Virus record (IMG/VR): IMGVR_UViG_3300032770_000020
Span: 3,284-67,283 of that record
Origin: a virus
Length of the DNA: 64,000 nucleotides
Strand: one strand, 5' to 3'
Shown here: piece by piece, positions 7,813 through 35,279 of the stretch
Layout: each line of letters opens with the position of its first letter
How positions within the stretch are numbered: the first letter of the stretch is position 1
Position numbers and translations under genes: made by a program
The notes under the pieces: model-generated
Databases searched by the model: none
What the model saw: the letters and a program-made list of their open reading frames with translations, nothing else
Told to the model about the DNA's origin: nothing

Positions 7813-10800
7813 GTGGCCGACGACACCAACCCACTCGACCAGCTGGACGAGCAGCCGCAGGCTGAAGCGAACCCGCTGGACGCCCTCGATGAGTCGCCAG
7901 GGCCCATGCCGGCGACCGCGGCGGCGGTCGACCAGGTGCCGGACCAGACCATCCCCGAGGTCACGGTCACGGGCCACAGGCCTGCTGCGTCGTGGTCCGA
8001 CGTCCTGGGGTCGGTTCTCCCGACCATCGGCGCGCGCATCGAGTCGAAGCTGGCGGGCCTGCAGGAGTTCAAGGGCAAGAGCGAGTACGCGGACGCCCGG
8101 AAGACCTTCTGGCAGTCGATGATCCTCCCAGGAGCCGTGCGCGAGGCCAAGGACGCCGGTATCGCGCTCACCGACCACCCGGACGTCGTGGACAACGCCA
8201 AGCGCCTCGGGATCCGCCCAGACGTATTCGCGCGGGACTGGCCCGAGTACGTGAACATGAAGCCGGACGACCTGGCGGCGCTCCAGAAGGAGCAGGTCGA
8301 GAAGATGCGCGAGGGCCAGGAGCAGGCCCAGACCGGCGGAGGCCGTCGGAAACTGGCCGCCCAGGTGAGCGCCGACGTCAGGCCCGCCATGGGCGGCGAC
8401 TGGACGCCCAAGTCGATCGTCTTCGACTCCCTCACCGGGGTGCCGGACCTCCTGGTGGGCACCGCTGGCACGGTCGCCGGCGGCCCCGTGGTAGGCCTCG
8501 CGGCCATGGGATCGAGCATCGCCCCGGAGGAGTGGTCGGCCGCCAAGAACGCCGGCGCCGACGACCGCACCGCGGCGACCTACGCCACGCTCTCCAGCCT
8601 CGCCCAGGCGGCCCCCGAGATCCCCGTGCTCAAGATCATCGAGGGCGGCAGCACGGGCCGCAGCGTGCTCAGGAAGCTCGTAGGCGACACCGTGGCGCAG
8701 TCCGCGGTCGGCAAGGTGGCTGGCACTGCGGCCACCCAGGGCGTGTCCCAGGCGCTCATCCAGAGCCTCCAGGAGGGCGTCGACGCTGGGATTCTGGACG
8801 AGCAGACCAGCCTCAAGGACGCCCTTTCCAGAATCGGCCGCGCCGGGCTGATCGGGACGGCCATGGGCGTGCCGCTTGGCGGCGTGCACGCGGTGACCGG
8901 GCGCGAGCCGCGCGCGCCGGGGGAGCCCAAGCCCACGGTCCTGAATGAGCCAGGGACCACCGAGCAGCCGGAGCCGCGGGCTGGGGCAAATATCCAACCC
9001 GCGGCGACGCAACCCACTGAATCTGCTAAGGCAGCCCCGGCTGATACCCAAGAAAAGACGCGAGCAGCACTAGAGGCTCTCCAGGACAAGACCATCTCGC
9101 CTGCGCAGATGGAGCACCTCGAGGACCAGGGTCTCGCGCGCCGCAATGACCTCGGGGAGCCGATGATTCTCCCGGCCGGCCGGCGGGCGCTAGTCGCTTT
9201 CCAGAACCAGCCACAGGGAGAGCCAGGTAGCGCCAGGGAGACGCAGGCAGAGGAAAAGACCCCCGTAAAAAACCCCGTTTCGACGGGGGATGAATTGCTC
9301 GACCGCATCGGGAACGACGAGGGCCTTCGGGCCGAGCTCGAGCGCATGAAGGGCGAGACCGGCTGGGCCGAGGTCGGCGGCCGCATTATCCGGACCCCCG
9401 GGTCGGACGAGAGCAAGCCCGACACCATCACGCGCACCAAGTGGATCCCGAATGCGGAGTGGTGGCCCGGTCGGCCGAAGGGCCTCACCGAGGACCAGGT
9501 GCACCTGGCGGTCGACAAGGCGCTGAACGGCGAGGAGCTCGGCAAGCGCGAGCGCTCCATGATCGAGCATATGGTCGGCGCGGCGGACGACAGGGTCGCC
9601 GCCGGCAACGAGGACTTCACCAGGCACCTCGAGGAGGCGCGCGCCGACACGGAGTCCAACCCCACCGAGGCGCAGAAGAAGGCGGGTAATTATGCGAAAG
9701 GTGAGGTCCAGTTCGCTCCGGGCCTGACCTTCACCATGGAGAATCCCAAGGGCTCGACGCGGTCGGGCACAGGCCCCGAGGGCCCCTGGGAGAGAACCAT
9801 GCAGCACGACTACGGCTACCTGAACCGCTCCACCGGCGCGGACGGCGACCACGTGGACGCCTTCCTGACTGGCAAGCCCGACACCGGCAAGGCCTTCGTG
9901 GTCAACCAGGTGGACCCGCAGACCGGACGCTTTGACGAGACAAAGTCAGTACTGGGCGCGCGCACCGCAGCGGAGGCGCGCGAGACGTATCTAGCAAACT
10001 ACCCGCGGGGTTGGAAAGGACTCGGCTCGGTGGCACAGTTGAGCACCGATGCCTACCGTGACTGGCTCCGCTCAGGCGACCACTCCAAGCCGCTCGTACC
10101 CGGAGCGCCAGGAGCGCCACGGGAAACGGTACTGGCCGGAGTACCAGCTCTGGCTGCAGATGAAGGGACGCTGTCTCAACCCGAGAAACAGGCGCTACAG
10201 CGACTACGGCGGGAGGGGAATCAGAATCTGCCCGAGGTGGCTGACCAGCTTCAACGCATTCATCAGCGACTTGGGCCGGAGGCCTTCGCCGCAAATGAGT
10301 CTGGAGCGGAAGGACAACAACGGGCACTACGAGCCGGGCAACGTGGTGTGGCTGCCGAAGCGGGACCAATCTCGGAACAGGCGGAACTGCCCGCCGGTGG
10401 AGCACATGGGCAGGAAACAGCTGGCCGTAGATTGGGACCGGGAGCTCGGGCTGAAGAGGGGCACGGTCTCGAGGTGGCGCCGGGCGGGGAAGAGCGTCGC
10501 GGAGCTGCTCGCCGCGAGGACGTAGAGCGCCGCAAAGCCGTCGCCGCGATGTCCCCTGAGGAGATGCGGCAGACCCTCCTCACCCACGAGCTCACAGGCC
10601 TGCCAAACCGGCGCGCGTACGATGAGGCGCCGAAGCTCTCCCACCAGGTGGCCGTGGACGTGGACTCCCTCAAGTGGGTCAACGATACGATGGGCCACGA
10701 GCACGGGGACGAGCTGCTCAAGACCGTCGCCGCGGCGCTGAAGGAGCAGACCGGCCACGCCTTCCACATCTCGGGGGACGAGTTCGTGGTGCAGGCCCGG

Positions 10801-13800
10801 AGCGAGCAGGAGGCCCACGACGTCATGCGCGAGGTGGCCGATGCCCTGGGCGGCTCCCGCATCGAGGCCACCCACCCGGACGGCCGAACCGTCGAGCTCG
10901 CTGGACTCGGACTCAGTTATGGCGTAGGAAGAAGCCTCCGTGAAGCCGACCGCAACCTCAGCGTCCACAAAGCCGATCGCGAAGCCCGCGGTGAGCGTGC
11001 TGCCCGGGGGGAGAAGCCTCCAGGAGCGCTTGAGCGCGCGGGGCGTGGGCAAAGGCTGGAAGCTGAAAGTGCGGTTGCCGAGCCGCGCGTAGAGACCGAC
11101 CGTGTCCGAGAAGACCAAGCCACCTACACCGCCGCCCAGCCGGTACCCGCAGAAGGAGGAAATCTTTCTGTTGGGGAACGTGCCCGCGGCTCTCGGGACG
11201 TACAGTCCGGCGCCAACCTACAGCTCTTTACGTCGGACCAGGCCCCAGCTGCGTCTCGTTCGATCACCGGAACGCGAGTCGGACTAGCCGAGACCGGGCG
11301 GTTCTCGTCCGGCATCAAGCAGGTGAAGCGATGGCAGGACGCCGCGCACATCTTCGCCCCGCTGCGTAAGTCCCCCCAGGAGCACATCATGGCCCTGGTA
11401 GTGGACGCCAAGGGCCGGCCACTCGCGGTGCTGCGCCACCAGATCGGGAACCAGACCGGCGCCGGCGTGGTGCCGCACATCCTCATCGGCGCGATCGGCA
11501 AGGTCGAGGGCGCGGCGGGCGTCTGGTTCGGACACAACCACCCGTCTGGGGTCACTGAGCAGAGCGGGGCCGACGAGAGCATCACCAACCAGCTGCACGA
11601 TTACATGCGCGGCAGCGGCATCGACCCGCTCGGTATGGTCGTGGTCACCCCCGGTGGCATGAAGGCGTCGTTCTACCACCCGGCAATCCACGGCGGCGGT
11701 GGCTCCGAGGAGGGCCGCACGACCGCGGCGGCGCGCGGCAAGCGCACATCCGTGCCTGTCATGGAGCGCCGGTTCACCCGGATCCCGTCCGGGGAGCGTG
11801 CCGTGCTCGACTCACCCGACAAGGCCAAGGAAGCGGTCGAGAAGTCAGGGCTCAAGTCGGGGGTAATGTTCCTCGACAACCGCCACAAGCTCGTCGCGAC
11901 GCTGCCGATGGACCCCAAGGAAATGGGCCCGCTGCGCACCGGCGACACGCGGTCCGGGATCATGCACGTGCTCCGCGCCGCAGAGGACGCCAACGCGACC
12001 TCAGCCATCACGTTCGGCGCCGAGAAGGACAGCGCCATCATCTCGAACCTCGGCAACATGCTGAACCAGACGGGGCTGCGCCTCCTCGACACGATGCTCA
12101 AGGGGAAGGACGGGGCGTTTTTCTCGCTGGGGAGTGGCCTGGTGTCGGACCGCAACTTCTACGCCATGCGCGAGTCGCCAGCCGGGCCGTTCGAGTTGCC
12201 CGCGGAGCACCGCGCCTCGATCGAGCAGGCCGTGCGCGCCTCCATCCGGGACTCAGGGATGCGCGCCGCGCCCGACTTCCCGCACGTCGAGGTGCACGCG
12301 GACTACACCACGCTGCCGCGCGACCTGCGCAACCAGGTCATACAGGACCGCGCCGAGCGCACCGCCGGCGCCGTCTACGACCCGGAGACCGGCCATATCC
12401 ACATGATCGCCGAGAACCTCGGCGGCCCGCGGGAGGCCACGGAGACGCTCTGGCACGAGGCCGTGGGGCACCACGGGCTCAGGCTGATCATGGACGCCGA
12501 CCGGTACGCGGACGTCATGGACGGCGTCTGGAACGCGATGCCGGACCGGGTGCGGCAGACGGCCGACAGGAATGGGCTAGATGTCGGTCAACTAGCACAG
12601 CGCCGGCTCGCCGCGGAAGAGGTCATCGCCTACGCCGCCGGGCGGCATCTCGCGGGCGCGACAATCGACAAGCAGGTACGGCCCTTCTGGCAGCGCGCGC
12701 TCACCGCGGTCAAGGCCTTCGTGGCGCGGTTGACCGGCAAGCCCTTCACGGATGACGCGGCGATCGCGAGCCTCATCCAGGAGTCGAAGCGGGCACTTGA
12801 GGGAGGCGCTGGGCGTCTCAAAGCGCTAGCTGACCATGACCTGGCAATCACCTCGAGGTCCCCGCTTGATATGCGCAGCGCCGAGGAGCGCGAGCAGGCC
12901 GAGATAGCTCGCGAGCTCAAGGAGAGCGGTTACGACGTTCAGTTCGGCCCAGAGGGAGTCTCGATCGTCGAGCCCGGGGAAGACGGGTCATCCTTTGTGC
13001 ACCCGGCCGCCGACCCGTCAGGCCTTCCGGAAGCGATCCAGGCACCGGTCGCACGCCTGAACGAGCTCAACGTTCAGATCAGGGAAGCCTACGGTGACCG
13101 CTGGGCCGAGCGGGCGTCACTGTCGCGGGAACTGCCGCGCTACTGGAAGAAGCCGAGCCAGCAGACCCTAGGGCTCCAGCACGGCCAGGGCCCGGGCTGG
13201 TACGAGCGCATCCGGAGCGCCGTCGAGTACCTGCACTCGAACCCCGTGACCAAGGACCTGCGGAAGCTCATCAACCCGACCAAGCTCTCGGAGGAGTCGA
13301 AGCGCACCGCAGTGATCGCGCGCGCCGCGCTCGGGAACCTCGCGCACCAGACCTTCGAGACCCAGGAGGCGCTCGAGCAATTCTCCCGCCAGATCGACCG
13401 CTTAGCTCCCGAGGAGCAGCTCGAGATGATGGACGCCATCGAGCATGGCGTGCCGCAGCCGAACGCGGACCTCCAGCCGGTGGCGGATGCGCTACGGAAG
13501 CAGCTCGACACCTGGCGGGACAAGGTCCGGGGCCTCGGCACCGGCGCGTTGGATAACTTCATCGAGAACTACTTCCCGCACTACTGGACGCAGCCGGGTC
13601 AGGCGCAGCGCATGGTGGCGACGATCATGGGACGACGGCCGCTCCGGGGACCTGCGTCCTTCCTCAAGATGCGCACGATCCCCACCATCAAGGAGGGCAT
13701 GGACGCTGGCCTCACCCCGCTCACGATCAACCCGCTCGTGATGACGCTCCTCAAGGTGCGCGAGATGCAGCGCTTCGTATCGGGCGTCAAGATGATGCAG

Positions 13801-15702
13801 TCCTTCAAGGATGCGGGCCTCGCGCAGTTCCTCCCGGCCACCAAGCCCATGCCCGACGGCTGGGCCGAGATCAAGGACAACATCGCCAAGGTCAGGCAAT
13901 GGTCGGAAGAAGAGCAGGGCTTCATCGAGCGCGGCCGCTACATCATGCCGGAGGACGCCGCGCGGTTGATCAATAACCACGTCGGCCGGTCAGTCCTCAC
14001 CGAGTTCACGCCGACCCACGTGCTGCGCCTGGGCGGGAACCTGCTCAACGCCATGCAGCTCGGCTTCTCGGCCTTCCACCTCGGGTTCACCACGCTGGAC
14101 GCCAGCATCTCGAAGAACGCGCTCGGCCTCGAGCAGCTCATCCGCGGCGAGGTCGGGCGCGCCGCCGCGTCCTTCGCCCAGGGCATGACGCCGGCGGGCG
14201 CGGTCCTCAACGTGCGCCGCGGCTACCAGCTGTTGAAGGCCTACGCGGACCCCTCGGGCGCGACACCGGAGATGGCCAAGATCGTGAGCGCCCTAGAGGC
14301 CGCGGGCGGCCGCGTGGCGATGGACCGCTACTACATGGCCATCAGCGGGGTGAGCCCATTCCGCGGCGTCGGGATCCGCTCCCTCGCCGGCGACGTACGC
14401 GAGGCCCTCAAGGGCCCGGAGCCGATCAAGGGCGCGGCGCGCGCGGTGGCGAACTTCCCCGCGGAGTACGCGCTCAGCGCCTACCGCGAACTCCAGGGCA
14501 TGGTCCACACGATGCCGCTCCTGCAGGTCCCGTTCGAGGTGGCCGGCCGGCTGGTGCGGGCCTCGACGTCCTGGATCATGGAGCACCTGGTGCCCATGCA
14601 GAAGCTCGGGGTCTTCAGCGACATGGCGCAGGACTACCTCAGGCGCAACCCCACGGCGACCTCCGACCAGGTCGCGCGCGCGATGCAGTCGGCCTGGGAC
14701 TCGGTGGACAACCGCCTGGGCGAGATGGTCTACGACAACGTCTTCTGGAATCGCACCTTCAAGGACGCGAACCACCTGGCGGTGCGCGCCGTGGGCTGGA
14801 ACCTCGGCACCATCCGGGAGATTGGCGGGGCTCCGATCGACGCGCTCAAGGCCGTCGACAAGCTCGCGCGCGAGGGCAAGATCACCGCGGACGACATCGG
14901 CCACAAGATTCCGTACGTGGTCGCGATGACAATGACCACGGCGATGCTCGGGGCGACGATCAACTATATGTTCACCGGCCAGGGCCCGCAGGAGCTCAAG
15001 GACTACTTCTTCCCGCGCACCGGCGGCATGACGAGCCACGGGACGCCGCAGCGGCTCTCGCTGCCGTCCTACGTGAAGGACGTCTACGAGTACTCCCAGC
15101 GGCCGGGCACGACCATCGCCAACAAGCTGAACCCCATCTTCAGCGTGCTCTCGGACATCTGGCGCAACGAGGACTACTTCGGCAACCCCATCTCGGAGCC
15201 TGAGGCCTCGGGCCTCACCCAGTTCGGCCAGCGGGCGGCCTTCGCGGCGCGCGAAGCGACGCCGTTCTCCATCCAAGGGCGCTCGCACATTGAGGGCTCG
15301 GACACCGAGGGCGTGTCGGGTGCCATCAAGCGCACGCTACCCTTCATCGGCGTGACGCCGGCGCCCGGATACGTGACCTCGCCGGACCAGCTCGAGCGCC
15401 GCGAGCGCTACGAGGCCGAGGACAAGTACTCGCGCGAGCTCCGCTACAAGCTGAATCGCGCCATGGCGACCCACGACCAGGACGCCATCAAGTCCCTGAC
15501 GGACCAGTACACCCAGTCGCGCCGGCGCGTGAAGGAGCTCCAGGTCGAGCTCCAGAAGGACAAGGCCAAGTCCGCGGCCGCGCGCCGCCAGAACGTCATC
15601 TCGATGCGCCAGCAGGGATTCCCGGCCACCGCCGGGCTCGTCGCATCTCTCCCGCTCGAGCCGGACCGGGCCGCGCGCGAGTACTTCAGGTCCATGGCAT
15701 GA
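7813..15702 (+). CDS. Giant (2629 aa) polyvalent ejection-type protein: inorganic-pyrophosphatase-like, GGDEF, JAB/RadC (x2), zincin-like metallopeptidase and helical C-terminal domains
   Basis: PTEAQKKAGNY...DYGY...GADGDHVD (~9660-10090); LTGLPNRR...DVDSLKWVNDTMGHEHGD...SGDEF (~10575-10980); HNHPSG-x4-SxxD (~11330-11670); WHEAVGHHG (12451-12477). Confidence 0.9.
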   Translation: MADDTNPLDQLDEQPQAEANPLDALDESPGPMPATAAAVDQVPDQTIPEVTVTGHRPAASWSDVLGSVLPTIGARIESKLAGLQEFKGKSEYADARKTFWQSMILPGAVREAKDAGIALTDHPDVVDNAKRLGIRPDVFARDWPEYVNMKPDDLAALQKEQVEKMREGQEQAQTGGGRRKLAAQVSADVRPAMGGDWTPKSIVFDSLTGVPDLLVGTAGTVAGGPVVGLAAMGSSIAPEEWSAAKNAGADDRTAATYATLSSLAQAAPEIPVLKIIEGGSTGRSVLRKLVGDTVAQSAVGKVAGTAATQGVSQALIQSLQEGVDAGILDEQTSLKDALSRIGRAGLIGTAMGVPLGGVHAVTGREPRAPGEPKPTVLNEPGTTEQPEPRAGANIQPAATQPTESAKAAPADTQEKTRAALEALQDKTISPAQMEHLEDQGLARRNDLGEPMILPAGRRALVAFQNQPQGEPGSARETQAEEKTPVKNPVSTGDELLDRIGNDEGLRAELERMKGETGWAEVGGRIIRTPGSDESKPDTITRTKWIPNAEWWPGRPKGLTEDQVHLAVDKALNGEELGKRERSMIEHMVGAADDRVAAGNEDFTRHLEEARADTESNPTEAQKKAGNYAKGEVQFAPGLTFTMENPKGSTRSGTGPEGPWERTMQHDYGYLNRSTGADGDHVDAFLTGKPDTGKAFVVNQVDPQTGRFDETKSVLGARTAAEARETYLANYPRGWKGLGSVAQLSTDAYRDWLRSGDHSKPLVPGAPGAPRETVLAGVPALAADEGTLSQPEKQALQRLRREGNQNLPEVADQLQRIHQRLGPEAFAANESGAEGQQRALRAGQRGVAAEAGPISEQAELPAGGAHGQETAGRRLGPGARAEEGHGLEVAPGGEERRGAARREDVERRKAVAAMSPEEMRQTLLTHELTGLPNRRAYDEAPKLSHQVAVDVDSLKWVNDTMGHEHGDELLKTVAAALKEQTGHAFHISGDEFVVQARSEQEAHDVMREVADALGGSRIEATHPDGRTVELAGLGLSYGVGRSLREADRNLSVHKADREARGERAARGEKPPGALERAGRGQRLEAESAVAEPRVETDRVREDQATYTAAQPVPAEGGNLSVGERARGSRDVQSGANLQLFTSDQAPAASRSITGTRVGLAETGRFSSGIKQVKRWQDAAHIFAPLRKSPQEHIMALVVDAKGRPLAVLRHQIGNQTGAGVVPHILIGAIGKVEGAAGVWFGHNHPSGVTEQSGADESITNQLHDYMRGSGIDPLGMVVVTPGGMKASFYHPAIHGGGGSEEGRTTAAARGKRTSVPVMERRFTRIPSGERAVLDSPDKAKEAVEKSGLKSGVMFLDNRHKLVATLPMDPKEMGPLRTGDTRSGIMHVLRAAEDANATSAITFGAEKDSAIISNLGNMLNQTGLRLLDTMLKGKDGAFFSLGSGLVSDRNFYAMRESPAGPFELPAEHRASIEQAVRASIRDSGMRAAPDFPHVEVHADYTTLPRDLRNQVIQDRAERTAGAVYDPETGHIHMIAENLGGPREATETLWHEAVGHHGLRLIMDADRYADVMDGVWNAMPDRVRQTADRNGLDVGQLAQRRLAAEEVIAYAAGRHLAGATIDKQVRPFWQRALTAVKAFVARLTGKPFTDDAAIASLIQESKRALEGGAGRLKALADHDLAITSRSPLDMRSAEEREQAEIARELKESGYDVQFGPEGVSIVEPGEDGSSFVHPAADPSGLPEAIQAPVARLNELNVQIREAYGDRWAERASLSRELPRYWKKPSQQTLGLQHGQGPGWYERIRSAVEYLHSNPVTKDLRKLINPTKLSEESKRTAVIARAALGNLAHQTFETQEALEQFSRQIDRLAPEEQLEMMDAIEHGVPQPNADLQPVADALRKQLDTWRDKVRGLGTGALDNFIENYFPHYWTQPGQAQRMVATIMGRRPLRGPASFLKMRTIPTIKEGMDAGLTPLTINPLVMTLLKVREMQRFVSGVKMMQSFKDAGLAQFLPATKPMPDGWAEIKDNIAKVRQWSEEEQGFIERGRYIMPEDAARLINNHVGRSVLTEFTPTHVLRLGGNLLNAMQLGFSAFHLGFTTLDASISKNALGLEQLIRGEVGRAAASFAQGMTPAGAVLNVRRGYQLLKAYADPSGATPEMAKIVSALEAAGGRVAMDRYYMAISGVSPFRGVGIRSLAGDVREALKGPEPIKGAARAVANFPAEYALSAYRELQGMVHTMPLLQVPFEVAGRLVRASTSWIMEHLVPMQKLGVFSDMAQDYLRRNPTATSDQVARAMQSAWDSVDNRLGEMVYDNVFWNRTFKDANHLAVRAVGWNLGTIREIGGAPIDALKAVDKLAREGKITADDIGHKIPYVVAMTMTTAMLGATINYMFTGQGPQELKDYFFPRTGGMTSHGTPQRLSLPSYVKDVYEYSQRPGTTIANKLNPIFSVLSDIWRNEDYFGNPISEPEASGLTQFGQRAAFAAREATPFSIQGRSHIEGSDTEGVSGAIKRTLPFIGVTPAPGYVTSPDQLERRERYEAEDKYSRELRYKLNRAMATHDQDAIKSLTDQYTQSRRRVKELQVELQKDKAKSAAARRQNVISMRQQGFPATAGLVASLPLEPDRAAREYFRSMA
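9267..9288 (-). terminator. Intragenic antisense rho-independent terminator-like hairpin
   Basis: Minus strand reads CCCCGT-CGAA-ACGGGG-TTTTTT. Confidence 0.45.
10049..10525 (+). mobile_element. HNH-type homing endonuclease gene nested in the +1 frame of the giant gene
   Basis: EYQLWLQMKGRCLNP...YGGRGIRICPRW...F..F..DLG.RP...SLERKDNNGHYEPGN..W...Q.RN.R plus C-terminal HTH; aligns by eye with HNH 26987..27442; GC3 bias moves to this frame. Confidence 0.85.
10940..11092 (+). CDS. Candidate nested +1-frame small basic protein (50 aa)
   Basis: GTG after TAGGAAGAAG; hand count 44/50 codons G/C-ending versus 31/50 in the host frame. Confidence 0.4.
   Translation: MKPTATSASTKPIAKPAVSVLPGGRSLQERLSARGVGKGWKLKVRLPSRA
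11102..11287 (+). CDS. Candidate nested +1-frame small protein (61 aa)
   Basis: AGAGACCGACC-GTG matches the phage's recurrent GAGACC-N3-4-start motif; host frame is low-complexity here. Confidence 0.35.
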   Translation: MSEKTKPPTPPPSRYPQKEEIFLLGNVPAALGTYSPAPTYSSLRRTRPQLRLVRSPERESD

Positions 15703-26986: not shown

Positions 26987-27442
26987 ATGCGGACGGTGCA
27001 TGGACACGCCCGCGCGGGCGCGAAGACGCGCGAGTACCGAGCGTGGTGCAACATGATCCAACGCTGCACCAACCCAAGGGCTACGTATTACCGCGCCTAC
27101 GGCGGCCGCGGCATCCGCGTCTGCGAGCGCTGGCTTCACTTCGAGAATTTCCTCTCGGACATGGGCCCATGCAGGCCGCACTTCTCGCTGGAGCGCAAGG
27201 ACACCAACGGCGACTACGAGCCGGGTAATTGCCGTTGGGCGACCCGAGCCGAGCAGGCCAGAAATTCCCGATCCAACCGGCTGCTGACCCATGCCGGGAA
27301 GACCCTCTGCCTGGTTGACTGGGCTGCGGAGGTCGGTATCTCCGAGAAGGTGATTTCGGACAGGTTGCGTCTAGGCTGGGCCGTTCCGCGCGCGCTCACG
27401 GAGCCGCTGCACTACCGCGGGCAGAAGGACTGGCATGCGTGA
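26987..27442 (+). mobile_element. Free-standing HNH homing endonuclease
   Basis: EYRAWCNMIQRC.NP...YGGRGIRVCERW..FENF..DMG...SLERKDTNGDYEPGNCRWAT..EQARN. Confidence 0.9.
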
Positions 27443-27848
27443 GCCCCGCCCGCAGCAGCGGATGCCTTACGGTGGCAAGCGCCTCTACCAGGCGCTGCGC
27501 CGCGACTACGAGCCCGTGCTGATCGACGTGTTCGTGTCGGAGCAGGCGGTCCGGGGGCGCCTGTTCGCCCCGAACGCCCTCGGCTTCAGCCGGGAGTTCG
27601 ACCCAATGCTGTACTTCTGGCCCGTGGAGGCCCAGCACGTGGTCGTACACCTGTGGGAGGAGAGCCCTGACCTGGTCGAGAGGCTCAGCCGGGCGCTGCT
27701 GCGGGACGGGGCGCTGTGGGTGAGCTTCCTCATCGGCGGTCTGCGCTATAGGATCGAATCGCGAGGCGACGTGCATGCTTTCTGGCGAAGGCGCTACGGG
27801 ACCGAACCCCCCATGGGTCCTGTGGCAACACCAACAGGAGGGGGCTGA
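27435..27848 (+). CDS. Hypothetical protein
   Basis: GC3 bias; overlaps both neighbours. Confidence 0.65.
   Translation: MREPRPQQRMPYGGKRLYQALRRDYEPVLIDVFVSEQAVRGRLFAPNALGFSREFDPMLYFWPVEAQHVVVHLWEESPDLVERLSRALLRDGALWVSFLIGGLRYRIESRGDVHAFWRRRYGTEPPMGPVATPTGGG
27690..27747. repeat. 58-bp perfect inverted repeat, copy 2 (in coding frame of 27435..27848)
   Basis: Reverse complement of 26270-26327. Confidence 0.95.
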
Positions 27849-29325
27849 TGCGATTGACGCCGCACCGGAGCGGCGCATCGTTGCGTGCGCACCGACGGGC
27901 AGCGGCAAGACCCTGCTCGGCATGGAGCTCGCCAGGCGCACGATCGGCCGCGGAGGCCGAGTCACGATCATGGCCCCGCGCCACGAGCTCATCCAGCAGT
28001 TCATCGAGCGCATGGATGTCTGGGCGGCGGGCGCGTACGGAATCATCTCCGCCGGCTTCAAGCGCCGGCAGAACCTCTACGCGGCGCTCCAGCTCGCGTC
28101 TGTGGACACTCTGGTCTCGCGCGTGGTCAAGCGTCGCAACCTGGCTCTCCCGCTGGCGGACCTTGTGATCTGCGACGAGGTGCACCTGTACCAGACGGCC
28201 CACCGCGCGGCGCTGCTCGGCATGTTCCCAGACGCGCGCATCGTCGGCCTCACGGCCACCCCAGGGCGATACGACGGGCGGCCGCTCGGCATGACGTTCG
28301 AGCGGCTCATCGAGATCGAGACCGTGAAGGGCCTCATCGAGAAGGGCTACCTGGTGCCCCCGCTCTACTACGCGCCGTCGGTCCCGGACCTGCGCAAGGT
28401 CCGCACGGTCGCCGGCGACTACAACCGCAAGCAGCTCGAGGAGCGCATGGAGCCGCTGCTCGGGGACATCATCGAGCACTGGCTGAAGCTCGCGTGCACC
28501 AGGCGCACGGTCGTCTTCGCCACCGGCGTCGGCCAGTCCGTCTACCTGGCGGAGCGCTTCCGCGCGGTCGGCGTGACGGCGGAGCATTGCGACGGCACCG
28601 CCGACCAGGTGCATCGCGAGGCCATCTTCGAGCGCTTCCGCACGGGCGAGACGCAGGTGCTGTGCAACGTGGACCTGGCCACCTACGGCTTCGACCTGCC
28701 TGACCTGTCGTGCGTGGTGCTCGCGCGGCCTACGCTCTCGGTGGTCCGCTACCTGCAGATGGTCGGTCGAGGCCTGCGCGCCGCCGATGGAAAGACCGAC
28801 TGCCTGGTGCTCGACCACGCCGGCAATGTGCGGCGGCACGGGTACGCGGAGGAGGAGCGGCACTGGTCGCTGGACGGCCGCCGCAAGATCCCAGGCAAGG
28901 CGCTCGAGCTCGCGCCGTGCAAGAGCGGCGAGGTCGAGAAGAAGAAGCTCCGCCTGCGCTGCCCGCGCTGCAAGCTGGTGTTCGCCGGCGCGCTCACGTG
29001 CCCGGGGTGCCAATACTACTTCGAGCGCACCGCCCGATCCTTCAGGGTCGTGGACGGCGAGCTCATCCGCATGCGCGAGCCCGAGCCACGCGACCTGGCG
29101 GAGCGCGTCGAGTTCTACCGCGAGCTCTTGGGCTACGCGGAGCAGAAGGGCTACAAGGCCGGCTGGGCGGCCCATGCCTACGAATCCAAGTACCGCGAGC
29201 TCCCGCCGCGTGACTGGGCGCGCCAGGGCGCCGCGGTGCCTAGCCCGAAGACGTACGGGTACGTGAAGTTTCTGACGATCCGCCGCGCGCGGTCGCGGCA
29301 CAAACAACAGGAGGTCTCGCAATGA
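27775..29325 (+). CDS. SF2 DExH helicase with C-terminal zinc finger
   Basis: APTGSGKT, DEVH, GLTATP, QMVGRGLR, LDHAGN, CPRC...CPGC. Confidence 0.95.
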   Translation: MLSGEGATGPNPPWVLWQHQQEGADAIDAAPERRIVACAPTGSGKTLLGMELARRTIGRGGRVTIMAPRHELIQQFIERMDVWAAGAYGIISAGFKRRQNLYAALQLASVDTLVSRVVKRRNLALPLADLVICDEVHLYQTAHRAALLGMFPDARIVGLTATPGRYDGRPLGMTFERLIEIETVKGLIEKGYLVPPLYYAPSVPDLRKVRTVAGDYNRKQLEERMEPLLGDIIEHWLKLACTRRTVVFATGVGQSVYLAERFRAVGVTAEHCDGTADQVHREAIFERFRTGETQVLCNVDLATYGFDLPDLSCVVLARPTLSVVRYLQMVGRGLRAADGKTDCLVLDHAGNVRRHGYAEEERHWSLDGRRKIPGKALELAPCKSGEVEKKKLRLRCPRCKLVFAGALTCPGCQYYFERTARSFRVVDGELIRMREPEPRDLAERVEFYRELLGYAEQKGYKAGWAAHAYESKYRELPPRDWARQGAAVPSPKTYGYVKFLTIRRARSRHKQQEVSQ

Positions 29326-29762
29326 GCGGTGGCGAATCGGTCGGGGAACTCGTCCCGATACTCAACCAGGTGGCCGAACGGCTGCGCGTGCAGGGAAACT
29401 ACGGCCCCGGGTGGTCGGACGTGGCGGACGCGACGGCGGTGACCCAGGCAGCGGAGGCGCTCCAAGCTCTGGACGCCGGCGTCCGCAAAGCGATATCCGA
29501 GTGCGAGGCCTGCGGCGGGTCGGGGTTCGACGTGATCGACGACGGGCATGGGGACATCGACAAGGATCCCTGCCAGTTCTGCTGGGACCTGCGCGAGCTG
29601 ATCCACGACACCACCAACTACACGCTGAAACCGCTCGAGGAGGCCGCGGCGGCGGAGCCATTCAGCCGCGAGGTGCGGGCGCCGCGCGCGCACTGCGCGA
29701 AGAGCGAGTACTGCTTCCTCCACGATGGTCACGAGGGCGCATGCGATGAAATTCCATTTTAG
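29322..29762 (+). CDS. Hypothetical Cys-rich protein
   Basis: CEACGGSG...PCQFC; RBS GGAGGT. Confidence 0.65.
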   Translation: MSGGESVGELVPILNQVAERLRVQGNYGPGWSDVADATAVTQAAEALQALDAGVRKAISECEACGGSGFDVIDDGHGDIDKDPCQFCWDLRELIHDTTNYTLKPLEEAAAAEPFSREVRAPRAHCAKSEYCFLHDGHEGACDEIPF

Positions 29763-29771
29763 GAGGCGCCC

Positions 29772-30215
29772 ATGAGGATGGCTTACCTGCGTGCGCGCGC
29801 AGACGCCGGAGACCGTGGGTCCCACGCGCCTGATGTGGTGGCTCGGATACGTACGCTTTACGAGGCCGGCAGCAGCCAGCGACAAATCGCCGCACAGATC
29901 GGCTGCAGCCGAGGCGCGATCGCGTACATCATGACGTTGAACCAGATCGTGGCCCGGCGCCCTGAGGAGCGCCAGTACCCGCGAGGCGCACAGCATGCCA
30001 ACTGGAAGGGCGACGGGGCCTGCTACGAGCGCCTGCACCAGAGGGTCGTCGAAGCGCGTGGCGCCCCGAAGAGGTGCGAGGGCTGCGGTCTCGCCGACCC
30101 GCGGAGGCACTACGACTGGGCAAACCTGACCGGCAGGTACGGGGACCCGATGGATTATCGGCGGCTCTGCCGCCCGTGCCACAGGCGTTACGACGCAAGC
30201 CGGAGGGCCAGATGA
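29772..30215 (+). CDS. HTH + HNH-like endonuclease
   Basis: SQRQIAAQIGCSRG HTH; NWKGD..Y..LH..V...RG.P..CE.CG...WAN...Y..LCR.CH..YD. Confidence 0.8.
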   Translation: MRMAYLRARADAGDRGSHAPDVVARIRTLYEAGSSQRQIAAQIGCSRGAIAYIMTLNQIVARRPEERQYPRGAQHANWKGDGACYERLHQRVVEARGAPKRCEGCGLADPRRHYDWANLTGRYGDPMDYRRLCRPCHRRYDASRRAR

Positions 30216-31024
30216 TCGATTCGATCATTGCCTGGCAGGGCGAGGTGGAAATACTGTCGGCCTCCTGGTCGCTGACCGATGGGCGCCGTGTAGAGCTCAG
30301 GCTGTGCGGGTCGCCCTACGACAGGCAACACCCCTTCAAGAGATTCCAGCAGAAACGGAATGGACACGTGGGGACGAGGTTCAAGGCCTCGTTCGCTCGT
30401 ACCAGTACGGGAGAAGTGCTGTCGACGATGGAGCTGATGCTGTGTTCTTGGAAGGACTCCTCCAGCATCGGCCAGTCGGTTATCTTCTGGCTCGACGATG
30501 AGCCCGACGTCCACCCATTCTGCGGCTGCGCGCCGCGCAAGGCGCAGGTCCCAGGCGATATGTTCGCCGTGGTCCTGGTGGAGTTGACCGATGACGACAG
30601 GCCCGTGGACCAGCACCGAGAACGACGAGTTGCGGGCGATGGCGGACACCCTGGCGAGCCACCCCGAGCTGGTGAAGCCCGAGGAAGTGGACCAGGCGAT
30701 AGCGGAGATCCGGGACCAGATCACGAACCTCGAGGAGCTGCTGGCGATCAGCCGGAGAGTCCTCGGACTGCTGGAGGCTCGAAAAGGCGCCTGTCGAGCT
30801 CCGCCCACCTCCTCCTGACGAGCCCGATGTTCACGCAATACCTCAAGGAGACCAAGCCCAACCTGGTGAAGTCGTGGACACCGGACGTCGCGCGCAACTA
30901 CGCCAAGCAGCTGATCAAGGTCGAGTCGCTCTCGGACCTAGACCGCGACCGCGGCGCCGTGGAACGCTACGAGAACCTCATCCGCCGCCCGTACGACCGC
31001 TGGGCGCACCAGGACCCCCGCTAA
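30212..31024 (+). CDS. Two-domain phage protein with disordered linker
   Basis: ATG 30212; ordered N-domain ending VLVELTDDDRPV; ordered C-domain ...ESLSDLDRD..A...Y...IRRPY..W. Confidence 0.75.
   Translation: MIDSIIAWQGEVEILSASWSLTDGRRVELRLCGSPYDRQHPFKRFQQKRNGHVGTRFKASFARTSTGEVLSTMELMLCSWKDSSSIGQSVIFWLDDEPDVHPFCGCAPRKAQVPGDMFAVVLVELTDDDRPVDQHRERRVAGDGGHPGEPPRAGEARGSGPGDSGDPGPDHEPRGAAGDQPESPRTAGGSKRRLSSSAHLLLTSPMFTQYLKETKPNLVKSWTPDVARNYAKQLIKVESLSDLDRDRGAVERYENLIRRPYDRWAHQDPR
30591..30818 (+). CDS. Nested +1-frame helical protein (75 aa)
   Basis: GGAG 7 nt before ATG; hand count 57 of first 62 codons G/C-ending; amphipathic heptads. Confidence 0.65.
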   Translation: MTTGPWTSTENDELRAMADTLASHPELVKPEEVDQAIAEIRDQITNLEELLAISRRVLGLLEARKGACRAPPTSS

Positions 31025-31036
31025 CCGGAGACCGCC

Positions 31037-31234
31037 GTGGACGTCAACATAGTCGAGCTCGACCGCTACATCACCTTCTGCCGCGAGCAGGCGCTGCGCC
31101 TGAGGCGGGAGCACGCTCACAAGACCTGGGCGCAGCACCAGGCGGAAACCTTCACGGACATCGAGAAGTTCCTGCTCGAGGTGCGGCGCGACCACCAGAT
31201 GCGTGGGCCCGGCGGCGCGAGGATCGACGAGTGA
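31037..31234 (+). CDS. Hypothetical protein
   Basis: GGAGACCGCC-GTG. Confidence 0.65.
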   Translation: MDVNIVELDRYITFCREQALRLRREHAHKTWAQHQAETFTDIEKFLLEVRRDHQMRGPGGARIDE

Positions 31235-31716
31235 GCCCGCACAACCAACCCTCAAAACAGCAGGTCTCTTGTGTTGTCTGCCATCAGCCAATCACTGAGA
31301 CTCGCCCCGGTACGTGGGGCATTGCACTCAGCAACGCGAAGCATCTTGAGTGTCAGCACATCCACGGCGAACTGGTGGCGGCTGGGTGCGGGCTACACGC
31401 TAACAGCCAGAATCCAGACTTCCGCCCTGGTCAGGAAGCCGTAGCGCGGTGGGCAAACTTAATGCTGCGGGGCGCCGACGAGATCGAGCGGCTGACGATG
31501 GAACGCGATGCTTGCCTGCGCCGGCTCAGCGAGAACGATGAGGAGATCGAGCGGCTGCGCGCGGCACTGGACCGGCTTGTCCGTGCCTGCGACGACTACG
31601 TGGTTGACAAGATGCCGGGCGCTGTTTGGGACGAGGAAGTCGAGCGCGCACGAGCATCCATTGAAGCCGCACCACGGGACGAGACGACAGCAGCTACGGA
31701 GTCAAAATGCCCCTGA
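31231..31716 (+). CDS. Hypothetical protein with EIERL coiled-coil
   Basis: GTGA overlap; lower-GC 5' half; ADEIERL/EEIERLRA repeats. Confidence 0.6.
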   Translation: MSPHNQPSKQQVSCVVCHQPITETRPGTWGIALSNAKHLECQHIHGELVAAGCGLHANSQNPDFRPGQEAVARWANLMLRGADEIERLTMERDACLRRLSENDEEIERLRAALDRLVRACDDYVVDKMPGAVWDEEVERARASIEAAPRDETTAATESKCP

Positions 31717-32015
31717 AAGATCATGCCGCGCGCGAGGCTCTCGCGCAGAAGTATGGATGGCACATCATGGGATGGGCCGTCGATCTGGACAATCCGGCCG
31801 GGATTTCGCTGGAGTCGAATTACGATCACATGCGATTCCTGCGGTTCCAGCACCGGGATTCGCTGGCGCAGTGGGAGAAGGTTCTCAAGGCTACGCCGAA
31901 CAAGAAGCCGAAGTACGCCAAGCCAAAGCCGGCAGCGCGCACCTTCGATGATGTGGTGGCGGAGAACAAGAAGCTCCGCGCCGAGCTGGCGAAGCTCAAG
32001 AAAGCGAAGCGGTGA
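31707..32015 (+). CDS. Hypothetical protein
   Basis: RBS GGAG; basic C-terminal coil. Confidence 0.65.
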   Translation: MPLKDHAAREALAQKYGWHIMGWAVDLDNPAGISLESNYDHMRFLRFQHRDSLAQWEKVLKATPNKKPKYAKPKPAARTFDDVVAENKKLRAELAKLKKAKR

Positions 32016-32224
32016 AGACTGGAGACAAGATCGTGTGGACGGCGCGCCCGAGCGGCGAGCGTTTCAATGGCCGGTTCGTGCGTCTGAGCCAGAAGGGCCG
32101 CGCCGAGATCGAGGTATGGATTCCTGATCGACCGCCGCTACGAAGCGGTCACACGCACAGGACGTGGGTGAAAGTCGAGAATATCGAAGCCGTACAACCG
32201 GAGAACGGGGAACGACCTCGATGA
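32012..32224 (+). CDS. Small SH3/KOW-like beta protein
   Basis: MKTGDKIVW...WVKVENIE. Confidence 0.6.
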   Translation: MKTGDKIVWTARPSGERFNGRFVRLSQKGRAEIEVWIPDRPPLRSGHTHRTWVKVENIEAVQPENGERPR

Positions 32225-32553
32225 CCGTAGAGCCTGGCGTCCGCGTCCGCGACATGCCCGACGAGGCCTTCGGGGCGCTCCTCAAGGCTATCGGGCCGGA
32301 GGTCGGGCGTCTTGCGAACCGCGGCGACCCGCTGGCGATCGCCGTCATGGCCCGCTACGTCTACGCCCACAACCACCAGAACGACCCCCAGGCGCTCCTC
32401 GAGGTGCGCACCGCGGTCGAGGACTACGTGAACCGGGACCTTCGCATCGCTGAGGTCAACGACCTCGGGAGCAAGTTCGGCCACATGGTCGAGGGCGAGG
32501 ACAAGGACCCGCCGCCGCGCATCTTCGTGCCTGGGAGCGGGAGCGAGCAGTGA
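32221..32553 (+). CDS. Hypothetical protein
   Basis: ATG 32221 in ATGA overlap; strong GC3. Confidence 0.65.
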   Translation: MTVEPGVRVRDMPDEAFGALLKAIGPEVGRLANRGDPLAIAVMARYVYAHNHQNDPQALLEVRTAVEDYVNRDLRIAEVNDLGSKFGHMVEGEDKDPPPRIFVPGSGSEQ

Positions 32554-34478: not shown

Positions 34479-35279
34479 ATGGCGAAACAGCCCGCAACAA
34501 CGAGTAACAAGCCTATCGACCTGACGTACGGGTTCCCGGGGGCCCTCCCGCGTGCCGGCACGAGCGGGGACACCGCCAAGCTGCTCGAGTTCTTCCAGCT
34601 GTACGCCCAGGGCGTCAGCGTCGCGGACGCCACCAGGAAGGTCGGGTTCTCCACGAAATGGGCCCGGCAGTACTCCTATCGGTGGCTCAAGAAGTACGCC
34701 GACTACGTGACCTGGCTCCAGGCGCACGTCGCCCAGGTGAACGCCCAGCAGCTGGCGCTCGAGCAGTCGGACGTCCTGCGGCAGATCGGCCTGATCGCGA
34801 TGGCCAACGACTACGACTACTTGGTCTTCGAGCGCGAGGGCGGCAAGGTCAGCGTGCGCTTCAAGGAGCTCCACGAGCTCACGCGCGAGCAGATGACAGC
34901 GATCGAGGTGGTCCGCGGCCCCAACGGCAAGCCCAAGGGCTGGAAGTGGCGGGACCGCGACGGCAAGCTCTTCGAGCTCGGCAAGCACCTCGGCATGTTC
35001 AACGAGAAGGTCATCCTCGAGCACCGCCACCGCCACTTGCATGTCACCGCGGACCTGTCCAAAGTGCCGCTCAAGGCGCTCGAAGCCCTCGAGACCGAGT
35101 TCGATCGGCTGCTGGCGCATGAGGAGCCGGCCAATGCCCAAGGCAGACTACCCGCAGTACGAGGCGATAAAGGCCAAAATGGTGGCGGAGGGCAAGCCGC
35201 TGGCGGCGGCCAAGACGTCGGCGGCCAGAATCACCAACAGCCGGGGCGGTCGCGTGCCGCCAAGCCATCCACGCGCTGA
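34479..35279 (+). CDS. terS: Terminase small subunit
   Basis: A.RKVGFS.K.A HTH, DVLRQIGLIA, ELGKHLGMF; upstream of terL. Confidence 0.8.
   Translation: MAKQPATTSNKPIDLTYGFPGALPRAGTSGDTAKLLEFFQLYAQGVSVADATRKVGFSTKWARQYSYRWLKKYADYVTWLQAHVAQVNAQQLALEQSDVLRQIGLIAMANDYDYLVFEREGGKVSVRFKELHELTREQMTAIEVVRGPNGKPKGWKWRDRDGKLFELGKHLGMFNEKVILEHRHRHLHVTADLSKVPLKALEALETEFDRLLAHEEPANAQGRLPAVRGDKGQNGGGGQAAGGGQDVGGQNHQQPGRSRAAKPSTR

Follow-up and report, generated by a model that had tools for sequence, protein, structure and literature searches.

In bacteriophage phiX174, gene E lies within gene D, an example of an overprinted overlapping gene, and in Bacillus subtilis comS, the gene for a small regulatory peptide, sits out of frame within the large multidomain gene srfA. 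To our knowledge, embedded genes are established in phages and few have been documented in large double-stranded DNA (dsDNA) phages outside lysis cassettes. In phage lambda, Rz1 is embedded in the +1 frame of Rz, of which it is the proline-rich, unstructured partner (PMC6139136). Viral overprinting in general is described as two frames running over one stretch, with codon usage telling the frames apart (PMC3744397, PMC8227390, PMC7017920). Here we analyse an arrangement of this kind in the window, that is, the whole 64-kb stretch of DNA under study, which comes from the 67,283-base virus record IMGVR_UViG_3300032770_000020 and has a G+C content of 67.5%. An open reading frame (ORF) of 75 codons plus TGA, 30591..30818 (+), lies wholly inside a larger ORF on the same strand, 30212..31024 (+; ATG start, 270 aa plus stop; hereafter the host ORF), in the +1 frame relative to it. 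The pair is a well-supported candidate for an embedded gene in a new protein-family pair, in which one stretch of DNA probably specifies two proteins.

A sequence-only reading of this locus had reported a 75-aa +1 ORF that is preceded by GGAG at a distance of 7 nucleotides (nt) and in which 57 of the first 62 codons end in G or C, and all of these are present in the sequence (64 of the 75 codons end in G or C overall). The GGAG, a Shine-Dalgarno-like (SD) motif, occupies 30580..30583 (+), and a +1-frame TGA one codon before the nested ATG (30585..30587, +) closes the +1 frame upstream. The ATG itself falls within a conserved host motif, V-E-L-x-D-D, whose GTGGAG codons for the V-E pair make the SD sequence, and the nested stop (30816..30818, +) is contained in CTC CTG ACG, three host codons (L-L-T) with which the conserved C-terminal domain of the host begins.

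An open +1 frame is by itself uninformative, because it persists in 81% of 5000 synonymous recodings of the host, in which the host peptide was kept and the codons were redrawn from genome usage; T is nearly absent from the second codon positions of the hydrophilic linker, and +1 stops therefore cannot form. The real evidence for the 75-aa gene is the codon signature, whose composition is far beyond chance. Over 30590-30817 the fraction of host third positions occupied by A or T is 0.50, versus 0.10 on average and at most 0.24 among the 5000 recodings. By third-position A/T and codon log-odds, the coding signature flips to the +1 frame in a core of 57 host codons (30614..30784, +), where host third-position A/T reaches 0.65 versus 0.14 in the flanking domains (Fisher p=1.3e-13). 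The codon log-odds of this core is -0.96 in the host frame, lower than in any of 181 in-frame windows taken from 23 training genes, and +0.73 in the +1 frame, at the 42nd percentile of true in-frame windows; host-frame scores of the two flanking domains are +0.48 and +0.80. The G+C content at the three codon positions (GC1/2/3) leads to the same picture: confident genes of this genome have values of about 0.6-0.69/0.39-0.57/0.82-0.95, the host N-terminal part (30212-30589) has 0.56/0.46/0.81 and its C-terminal part (30818-31021) 0.62/0.41/0.94, and over the linker the host frame has 0.86/0.64/0.50, an off-frame pattern, versus a gene-like 0.65/0.49/0.85 in the +1 frame. When the whole window was scanned for internal frame flips, only two were clearly internal, the linker with the 75-aa ORF and 10045-11205.

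The host ORF encodes a two-domain protein of the replication module. AlphaFold2 (AF2), run with a 36-row alignment, predicts two confident domains, a beta-rich N-terminal domain (N-domain; residues 1-143, 30212..30640, +) with block means of the predicted local distance difference test (pLDDT) of 86-96 and a helical C-terminal domain (C-domain; residues 190-270, 30779..31021, +) with block means of 91-98. Between them lies a linker rich in G, A, P, R, D and E (residues ~145-188, 30644..30775, +) that is predicted to be disordered from AF2 pLDDT and homologue variability: ten-residue block means over residues 141-190 are 52, 40, 39, 44 and 51, and pLDDT is below 50 at residues 145-172, 174-178 and 180-182. 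The two ordered domains joined by a linker that the sequence-only reading had described are thus seen in the model, and the linker string that it quoted is present, at host residue 142.

A possibility raised by the same reading, that the host ORF is really two genes, did not hold up. The profile phrog_19763 (161 positions) matches the N-domain at E=7.6e-18, with residues 73-138 on profile positions 10-75, and the 65-aa C-terminal piece matches the same profile at positions 114-160 (the C-domain also matches phrog_10379, E=1.9e-07). Short-linker homologues, which had been proposed as a comparison, do exist in cultured phages, where the homologue is annotated as a single coding sequence (CDS) of 157 aa in Ralstonia phage Hyacinthe and 158 aa in Burkholderia phage JC1, a few genes downstream of dnaB or two genes 3' of the gene for single-stranded DNA-binding protein. 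Because a single profile spans both domains and cultured phages carry both in single CDSs, the host ORF is one real gene. A tblastn search with the host protein gave matches in 22 Burkholderia and Ralstonia phage records, and a protein search returned 47 homologues, 42 of them 226-291 aa long at 49-69% identity and five shorter and more distant. Both domains are well conserved among these homologues; the linker varies in sequence and length and can barely be aligned. Anchors allowed 40 of the 47 homologues to be parsed, and in these linker length is bimodal, with 12-23 residues in 5 proteins, 56-74 residues in 35 and none between.

Searches for the function of the host protein gave no match to a Pfam family, no PDB match at E<=0.001 with Foldseek and no relative in a scan of genome contigs with the host alignment. 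The Pfam result is also the observation that bears on an intein or intron insertion, which was considered. With VIA-align the N-domain retrieved only generic beta-barrels (Z up to 6.9, within the tool's stated noise range), so that the fold searches of the host model by Foldseek and VIA-align provided no functional lead. The C-domain weakly resembled NinB of lambda (Z=5.2) and one chain of the Sak-Stl complex of 80alpha (Z=5.8), again within the noise range; a NinB/Sak resemblance would suit the place of the gene in a replication/recombination module. The host protein has no transmembrane segment (maximal 19-residue Kyte-Doolittle mean 0.73).

Scans of viral and metagenome sequences gave 25 loci, and eight sequences, the window included, have a long linker. 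They represent six lineages: the window; L005/L006/L009 together with L007 and L010; L001; L017; L003, the same contig as L016; and L008. Stops in the +1 frame of homologues had been named as evidence that would speak against a nested gene, and the core turned out to be free of stops in both the host and the +1 frame in all eight long-linker loci. The +2 frame is stopped in 8/8, and the frames besides host, +1 and the antisense frame that shares the wobble position are stopped in at least 7/8. An antisense gene in that wobble-sharing frame was considered and rejected, as stops occur there in three of the eight loci (L001, L007, L008). The composition recurs as well: host third-position A/T in the eight loci is 0.54-0.73 across the core and 0.12-0.37 across the domains (Fisher p between 1.3e-13 and 4.8e-4), and in the high-GC short-linker loci L002, L012 and L014 the host GC3 of the linker stays at 0.81-0.93. 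At conserved four-fold codons in the domains, the third base is identical between lineages in a fraction of 0.33-0.50, versus 0.29-0.38 expected from base frequencies; four-fold sites are thus near saturation between lineages, and an unselected signature should therefore have decayed.

The nested start is retained too. In every long-linker locus a +1 ATG falls within the DD[DE] motif of the host, occupying either of two neighbouring positions, and it requires the minority Asp codon GAT, used for 16 of the 57 Asp codons elsewhere in these genes; a rough chance expectation for such an ATG is about 0.5 per lineage. GTGGAG, from the host V-E codons, stands 4-10 nt upstream of the +1 ATG in the long-linker loci, in a weaker form in L001 and at a spacing of 4 nt in L003. 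The stop at the junction with the C-domain is present in the window, L005, L007 and L010 and absent in L001, L003, L008 and L017. The nested ORF of the latter four runs some 40-50 codons over the host C-domain (L001:1880-2266, L003:1877-2245, L008:1880-2227, L017:49-375), and these run-on ORFs, 109-129 aa in total, have a strongly basic tail rich in S, R and K.

The +1 peptides are rich in L, E and R, and their helical hydrophobic moment exceeds that of residue shuffles in 7/8 loci (z 1.3-2.8; combined p=0.0017 over the six lineages), compared with z from -1.8 to 1.5 for the host-frame peptides. When similarity between lineages is tested against shuffles, the +1 frame scores above the host frame for L001-L017 (z=10.4 vs 1.7), window-L010 (5.9 vs 1.1), L001-L008 (2.8 vs 0.2) and window-L005 (2.6 vs 0.5), and phmmer finds the same pairs. 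Global frame identity and codon-position counts of divergent pairs were uninformative, owing to low-complexity bias, the inclusion of host-conserved flanks and saturation.

The product of 30591..30818 is predicted to be an acidic helix-loop-helix protein (net charge about -5), with AF2, on an 8-row alignment, placing helices at residues 6-23 and 30-68 (mean pLDDT 82.6, a value for which the general helix bias of AF2 is uncontrolled). No segment is hydrophobic enough for a transmembrane helix (maximal 19-residue Kyte-Doolittle mean 0.69), the single Cys is residue 68 of 75, and a complex prediction for the nested protein with the host N-domain and C-domain gave no verdict (score 0.01). The ESM Atlas yielded a best feature score of 0.76 and merely generic helical structure matches, with no lead. 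No family in Pfam or PHROGs matched the 75-aa protein below E=0.07, in keeping with its description by the sequence-only reading as a non-nuclease cargo, since no nuclease family is matched, and the nested ORFs of five relatives had no PHROGs match at E<=0.1. A word-based protein search retrieved the query itself only, tblastn against phages retrieved none, and a scan of viral contigs gave 37 pattern stretches and no relatives. An exhaustive profile search of 1.84 billion representatives returned only P0048 and P0049, which are the nested ORFs of the window and of the L005 group, and the eukaryotic coiled-coil/repeat proteins P0050 and P0051, which we judged from their sequences to be spurious and rejected as relatives. 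By phmmer against 1978 six-frame ORFs from the window and all loci, only the known nested partners were recovered, and no paralogue.

We consider it moderately likely, from the comparisons above, that 30591..30818 is a translated embedded gene with the host linker as its passenger. Ribosomes starting at ATG 30212 would make the 270-aa protein with its beta-rich N-domain, disordered spacer and helical C-domain, and a second set of ribosomes would initiate internally at ATG 30591 on the same mRNA and make the 75-aa acidic helix-loop-helix protein, ending at the TGA within the host L-L-T codons. In the core of the overlap, the nested frame would carry the constraint and the normal codon usage, and the host linker peptide, as passenger, would only need to remain stop-free and hydrophilic. 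Since the host linker consists largely of four-fold codons (Gly, Ala, Pro, Arg), host third positions, which are nested second positions, can change with the host peptide unaltered; the nested wobble position, in turn, would drive host first positions to G/C, and together these would explain the richness of the linker in G, A, P, R, D and E. As to what the small protein does, our guess, made with low confidence, is that it serves the replication module as a partner or regulator.

Several observations weigh against translation of the nested frame. The SD sequence and part of the ATG context are not independent evidence, because the host-conserved motif that provides them occurs in short-linker relatives too. 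The C-terminus of the nested ORF is not conserved, the junction stop being missing in four of the six lineages, and the nested peptides of relatives are only 16-31% identical to that of the window, which indicates fast divergence. L003 lacks the amphipathic signal in the +1 frame (z=-0.9), the window-L008 pair favours the host frame (z=4.2 vs -0.6 in +1), and the other distant pairs have significant similarity in neither frame. In L005, L007 and L010, the only close relatives, changes classed as nonsynonymous (N) or synonymous (S) in each of the two frames number NN 4, NS 6, SN 5 and SS 0, out of 269, 147, 158 and 5 possible changes, respectively, counts whose direction fits constraint in both frames and which are far too few to decide. 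The ESM Atlas itself models the 75-aa protein with little confidence (pLDDT 0.63; predicted template modelling score, pTM, 0.35). Finally, a free-standing form of the 75-aa protein, for which the sequence-only reading had suggested looking, was not found, and neither was a family, in the Pfam, PHROGs, tblastn, protein, profile and viral-contig searches.

These points bear on the alternatives in different ways. One unlikely explanation is that a single protein is made and that selection acts on the mRNA or on translation speed, either through A/T-ending rare codons that slow the ribosome between the domains or through avoidance of very stable GC-rich RNA structure, with the +1 ORF as a by-product. 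It would account for the openness of the +1 frame, which is expected from the recodings, for the poor conservation of the +1 sequence across lineages and for an SD sequence that derives from a host-conserved motif, and the site-class counts (NN 4, NS 6, SN 5) are too few to decide against it. It does not, however, predict amphipathic periodicity in the +1 peptides, a start codon kept in 6/6 lineages, greater residual similarity of the +1 frame compared with the host frame, or codon log-odds of +1 at the full level of in-frame sequence. The short linkers of high-GC relatives, moreover, hold a GC3 of 0.81-0.93, and the window scan flags only this linker and the HNH insertion described below as clearly internal flips.

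Slightly less probable still, in our estimate, is that the overlap is a relic, a small gene or fragment that was inserted and is still read through by the host, with its +1 frame no longer expressed or selected. Such an insertion has a precedent in the same genome (the HNH ORF), it fits the bimodal linker lengths and the unconserved nested C-terminus, and read-through would be easy, given that the host frame is open in 42% of recodings of the 75-aa ORF. Four-fold sites are nevertheless near saturation, yet all six lineages keep the +1 signature, the ATG and the open frame, and a dead frame should have drifted towards the GC3 of the host frame.

Recoding, in which the +1 frame would be reached by a frameshift from the host frame to give a fusion of the N-domain with the helical segment, or, with a second shift, an N-domain, helix and C-domain in one chain, is very improbable. 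The helical segment does lie exactly between the two domains, and in L005, L007 and L010 some 40 codons of the +1 frame ahead of the ATG are free of stops. In the window, however, the +1 TGA stands one codon before the ATG, stops are at most 3 codons away in L001, L003 and L008, an ATG with SD is present, and the host ORF contains no X XXY YYZ heptamer, the type of shift site that was looked for; we know of no precedent for a double frameshift. Three separate genes (the N-domain, the 75-aa ORF and a 65-aa C-domain from ATG 30827) deserve next to no credence. The public gene calls imply them, in that this contig has the entries P0048 (75 aa) and P0053 (65 aa) and none for the 270-aa ORF, but the host frame runs free of stops from 30212 to 31024 and is likewise uninterrupted in 8/8 long-linker loci, the Met at 30827 is not conserved, and one PHROG profile and the single CDSs of cultured phages join both domains.

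Returning to an embedded, translated gene, its origin may be looked at in the light of a second nested ORF in the window. An HNH endonuclease ORF at 10049..10525 (+; phrog_3377, E=6.8e-39) lies in the +1 frame of a 2629-aa ORF, 7813..15702, which encodes a polyvalent-type protein (PF00990, PF04002 and PF18823 in the precomputed Pfam list) and whose frame stays open across the HNH ORF. The nearest homologue, P0055, is without the HNH segment: of the compared residues, 1-207 and 322-533 align to P0055 residues 595-801 and 788-993, and as these flanks are contiguous in P0055, the HNH segment is a recent insertion that the host frame reads through. The phrog_3377 match begins at residue 22 of the nested HNH ORF, and the apparent HNH ATG thus lies in a host-conserved flank. 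A free-standing paralogue of the nested gene is found at 26987..27442 (+; phrog_3377, E=4.7e-50), and the window has at least three HNH-type genes (10049..10525, 26987..27442 and 29772..30215). The low host-frame GC3 within 7813..15702 reaches past the HNH ORF into 10526..11205 (+), which aligns with the GGDEF region (PF00990) of the homologue, and a minus-strand ORF with a GC3 of 0.81, 10327..11118, overlaps this low-GC3 stretch.

The nested-in-linker layout therefore does recur in this genome, as the sequence-only reading had stated, and its wider proposal, that the phage acquires genes in this way, stands as far as the layout goes and not for acquisition of the 75-aa ORF, which has no free-standing homologue and starts and stops in host-conserved sequence. 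The HNH insertion makes an insertion origin plausible for the 75-aa ORF, the bimodal linker lengths fit a single event, and read-through comes easily, the host frame staying open in 42% of recodings that are synonymous for the 75-aa ORF. Of the two possible origins, we regard one insertion of about 40-50 codons in the ancestor of the long-linker clade as slightly favoured over the de novo overprinting of a linker that had expanded, although, with the nested start and stop in host-conserved sequence and no donor found, the two are indistinguishable in the present data.

The two cases suggest that the open alternative frames of high-GC DNA may allow gene-in-gene insertion without breakage. It is possible, though we hold this tentatively and think it doubtful, that disordered interdomain linkers of high-GC phages act as landing pads that take whole out-of-frame genes and have them read through as a stop-free spacer rich in G, A, P and R. 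The host protein would survive such an insertion, so that the cargo can be kept, and the window would hold two stages of the process, the recent HNH insertion at 10049..10525 and an old, domesticated, clade-fixed 75-aa cargo. If this were true, insertion without intron, intein or gene split would be a third way for mobile genes to reside inside essential genes, and many "low-complexity linkers" of high-GC viral proteins would be read-through cargo.

The sequence-only reading had also supposed that standard gene callers would miss the nested gene, and the reverse is the case: the public calls keep the 75-aa ORF and break the host. For this contig, the public protein collection includes the exact 75-aa ORF (P0048) and the 65-aa C-terminal ORF 30827..31021 (P0053), and it lacks the 270-aa and 316-aa forms of the host; it also lists the 69-aa nested ORF found in the L005 group, as P0049 and P0052, the latter on 10 contigs. 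As the public calls hold the small ORF and a C-terminal stub and not the full host, families like this one may be fragmented in databases.

In its genomic setting, the host ORF follows closely on a gene for a DNA helicase (27775..29325; phrog_16, E=1.3e-94), and its ATG overlaps the TGA (as ATGA) of the upstream gene for a helix-turn-helix (HTH) and HNH endonuclease protein (29772..30215, +; phrog_8446, E=2.2e-11; HTH_7, E=1.3e-4, below the Pfam cut-off), which serves as context only. A scan of 29000-32500 found no promoter or terminator on the + strand, and a DNA search of a phage collection with 30100-31100 as query gave no match. No RNA run is among the sequencing runs listed for this DNA; run X1 may be the source sample, run X2 contains short identical pieces, and the aligned contigs showed no variants. 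Elsewhere in the window, a drop in in-frame GC3 with a +1-type signature covers the last ~60 codons (35076..35267, +) at the 3' end of ORF 34479..35279, a small-terminase-like gene (phrog_51, E=8.2e-12), and may reflect a gene overlap or a wrong stop-to-stop frame.

Compared with known systems, the locus shares with comS in srfA its layout only, the latter being bacterial and set in a different host protein. With lambda Rz/Rz1, which likewise belongs to a dsDNA phage, it has in common that a small gene is entirely enclosed by a larger one of the same strand and is read in the +1 frame, both lambda products being translated. The 75-aa pair differs in not belonging to a lysis cassette, in a host without transmembrane segment and a nested protein without lipoprotein signal, and in that the nested product is predicted to be ordered and helical and the host segment disordered, whereas in lambda it is Rz1 that is unstructured. 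A two-component spanin was accordingly rejected as an identity for the pair, the host having no N-terminal transmembrane segment, the nested protein no lipobox Cys, and neither a spanin match in Pfam or PHROGs. The HNH insertion at 10049..10525 is alike in that a cargo ORF lies in the +1 frame of a host linker and is read through by the host, with the apparent ATG of the cargo in a host-conserved flank in both cases; it is unlike the 75-aa gene in that the latter belongs to no nuclease or other family and is old and clade-wide, whereas the HNH segment is absent from the nearest homologue. Viral overprinted genes likewise show dual coding with one product disordered or of unusual composition. 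What sets the present locus apart from them is that the overlap is confined to an interdomain spacer, that the embedded frame has genome-like codon usage and that the pair is kept over about 40 divergent homologues in large high-GC dsDNA phages, a clade that appears to keep a second gene in the spacer of a replication-module protein, with the spacer peptide as its passenger.

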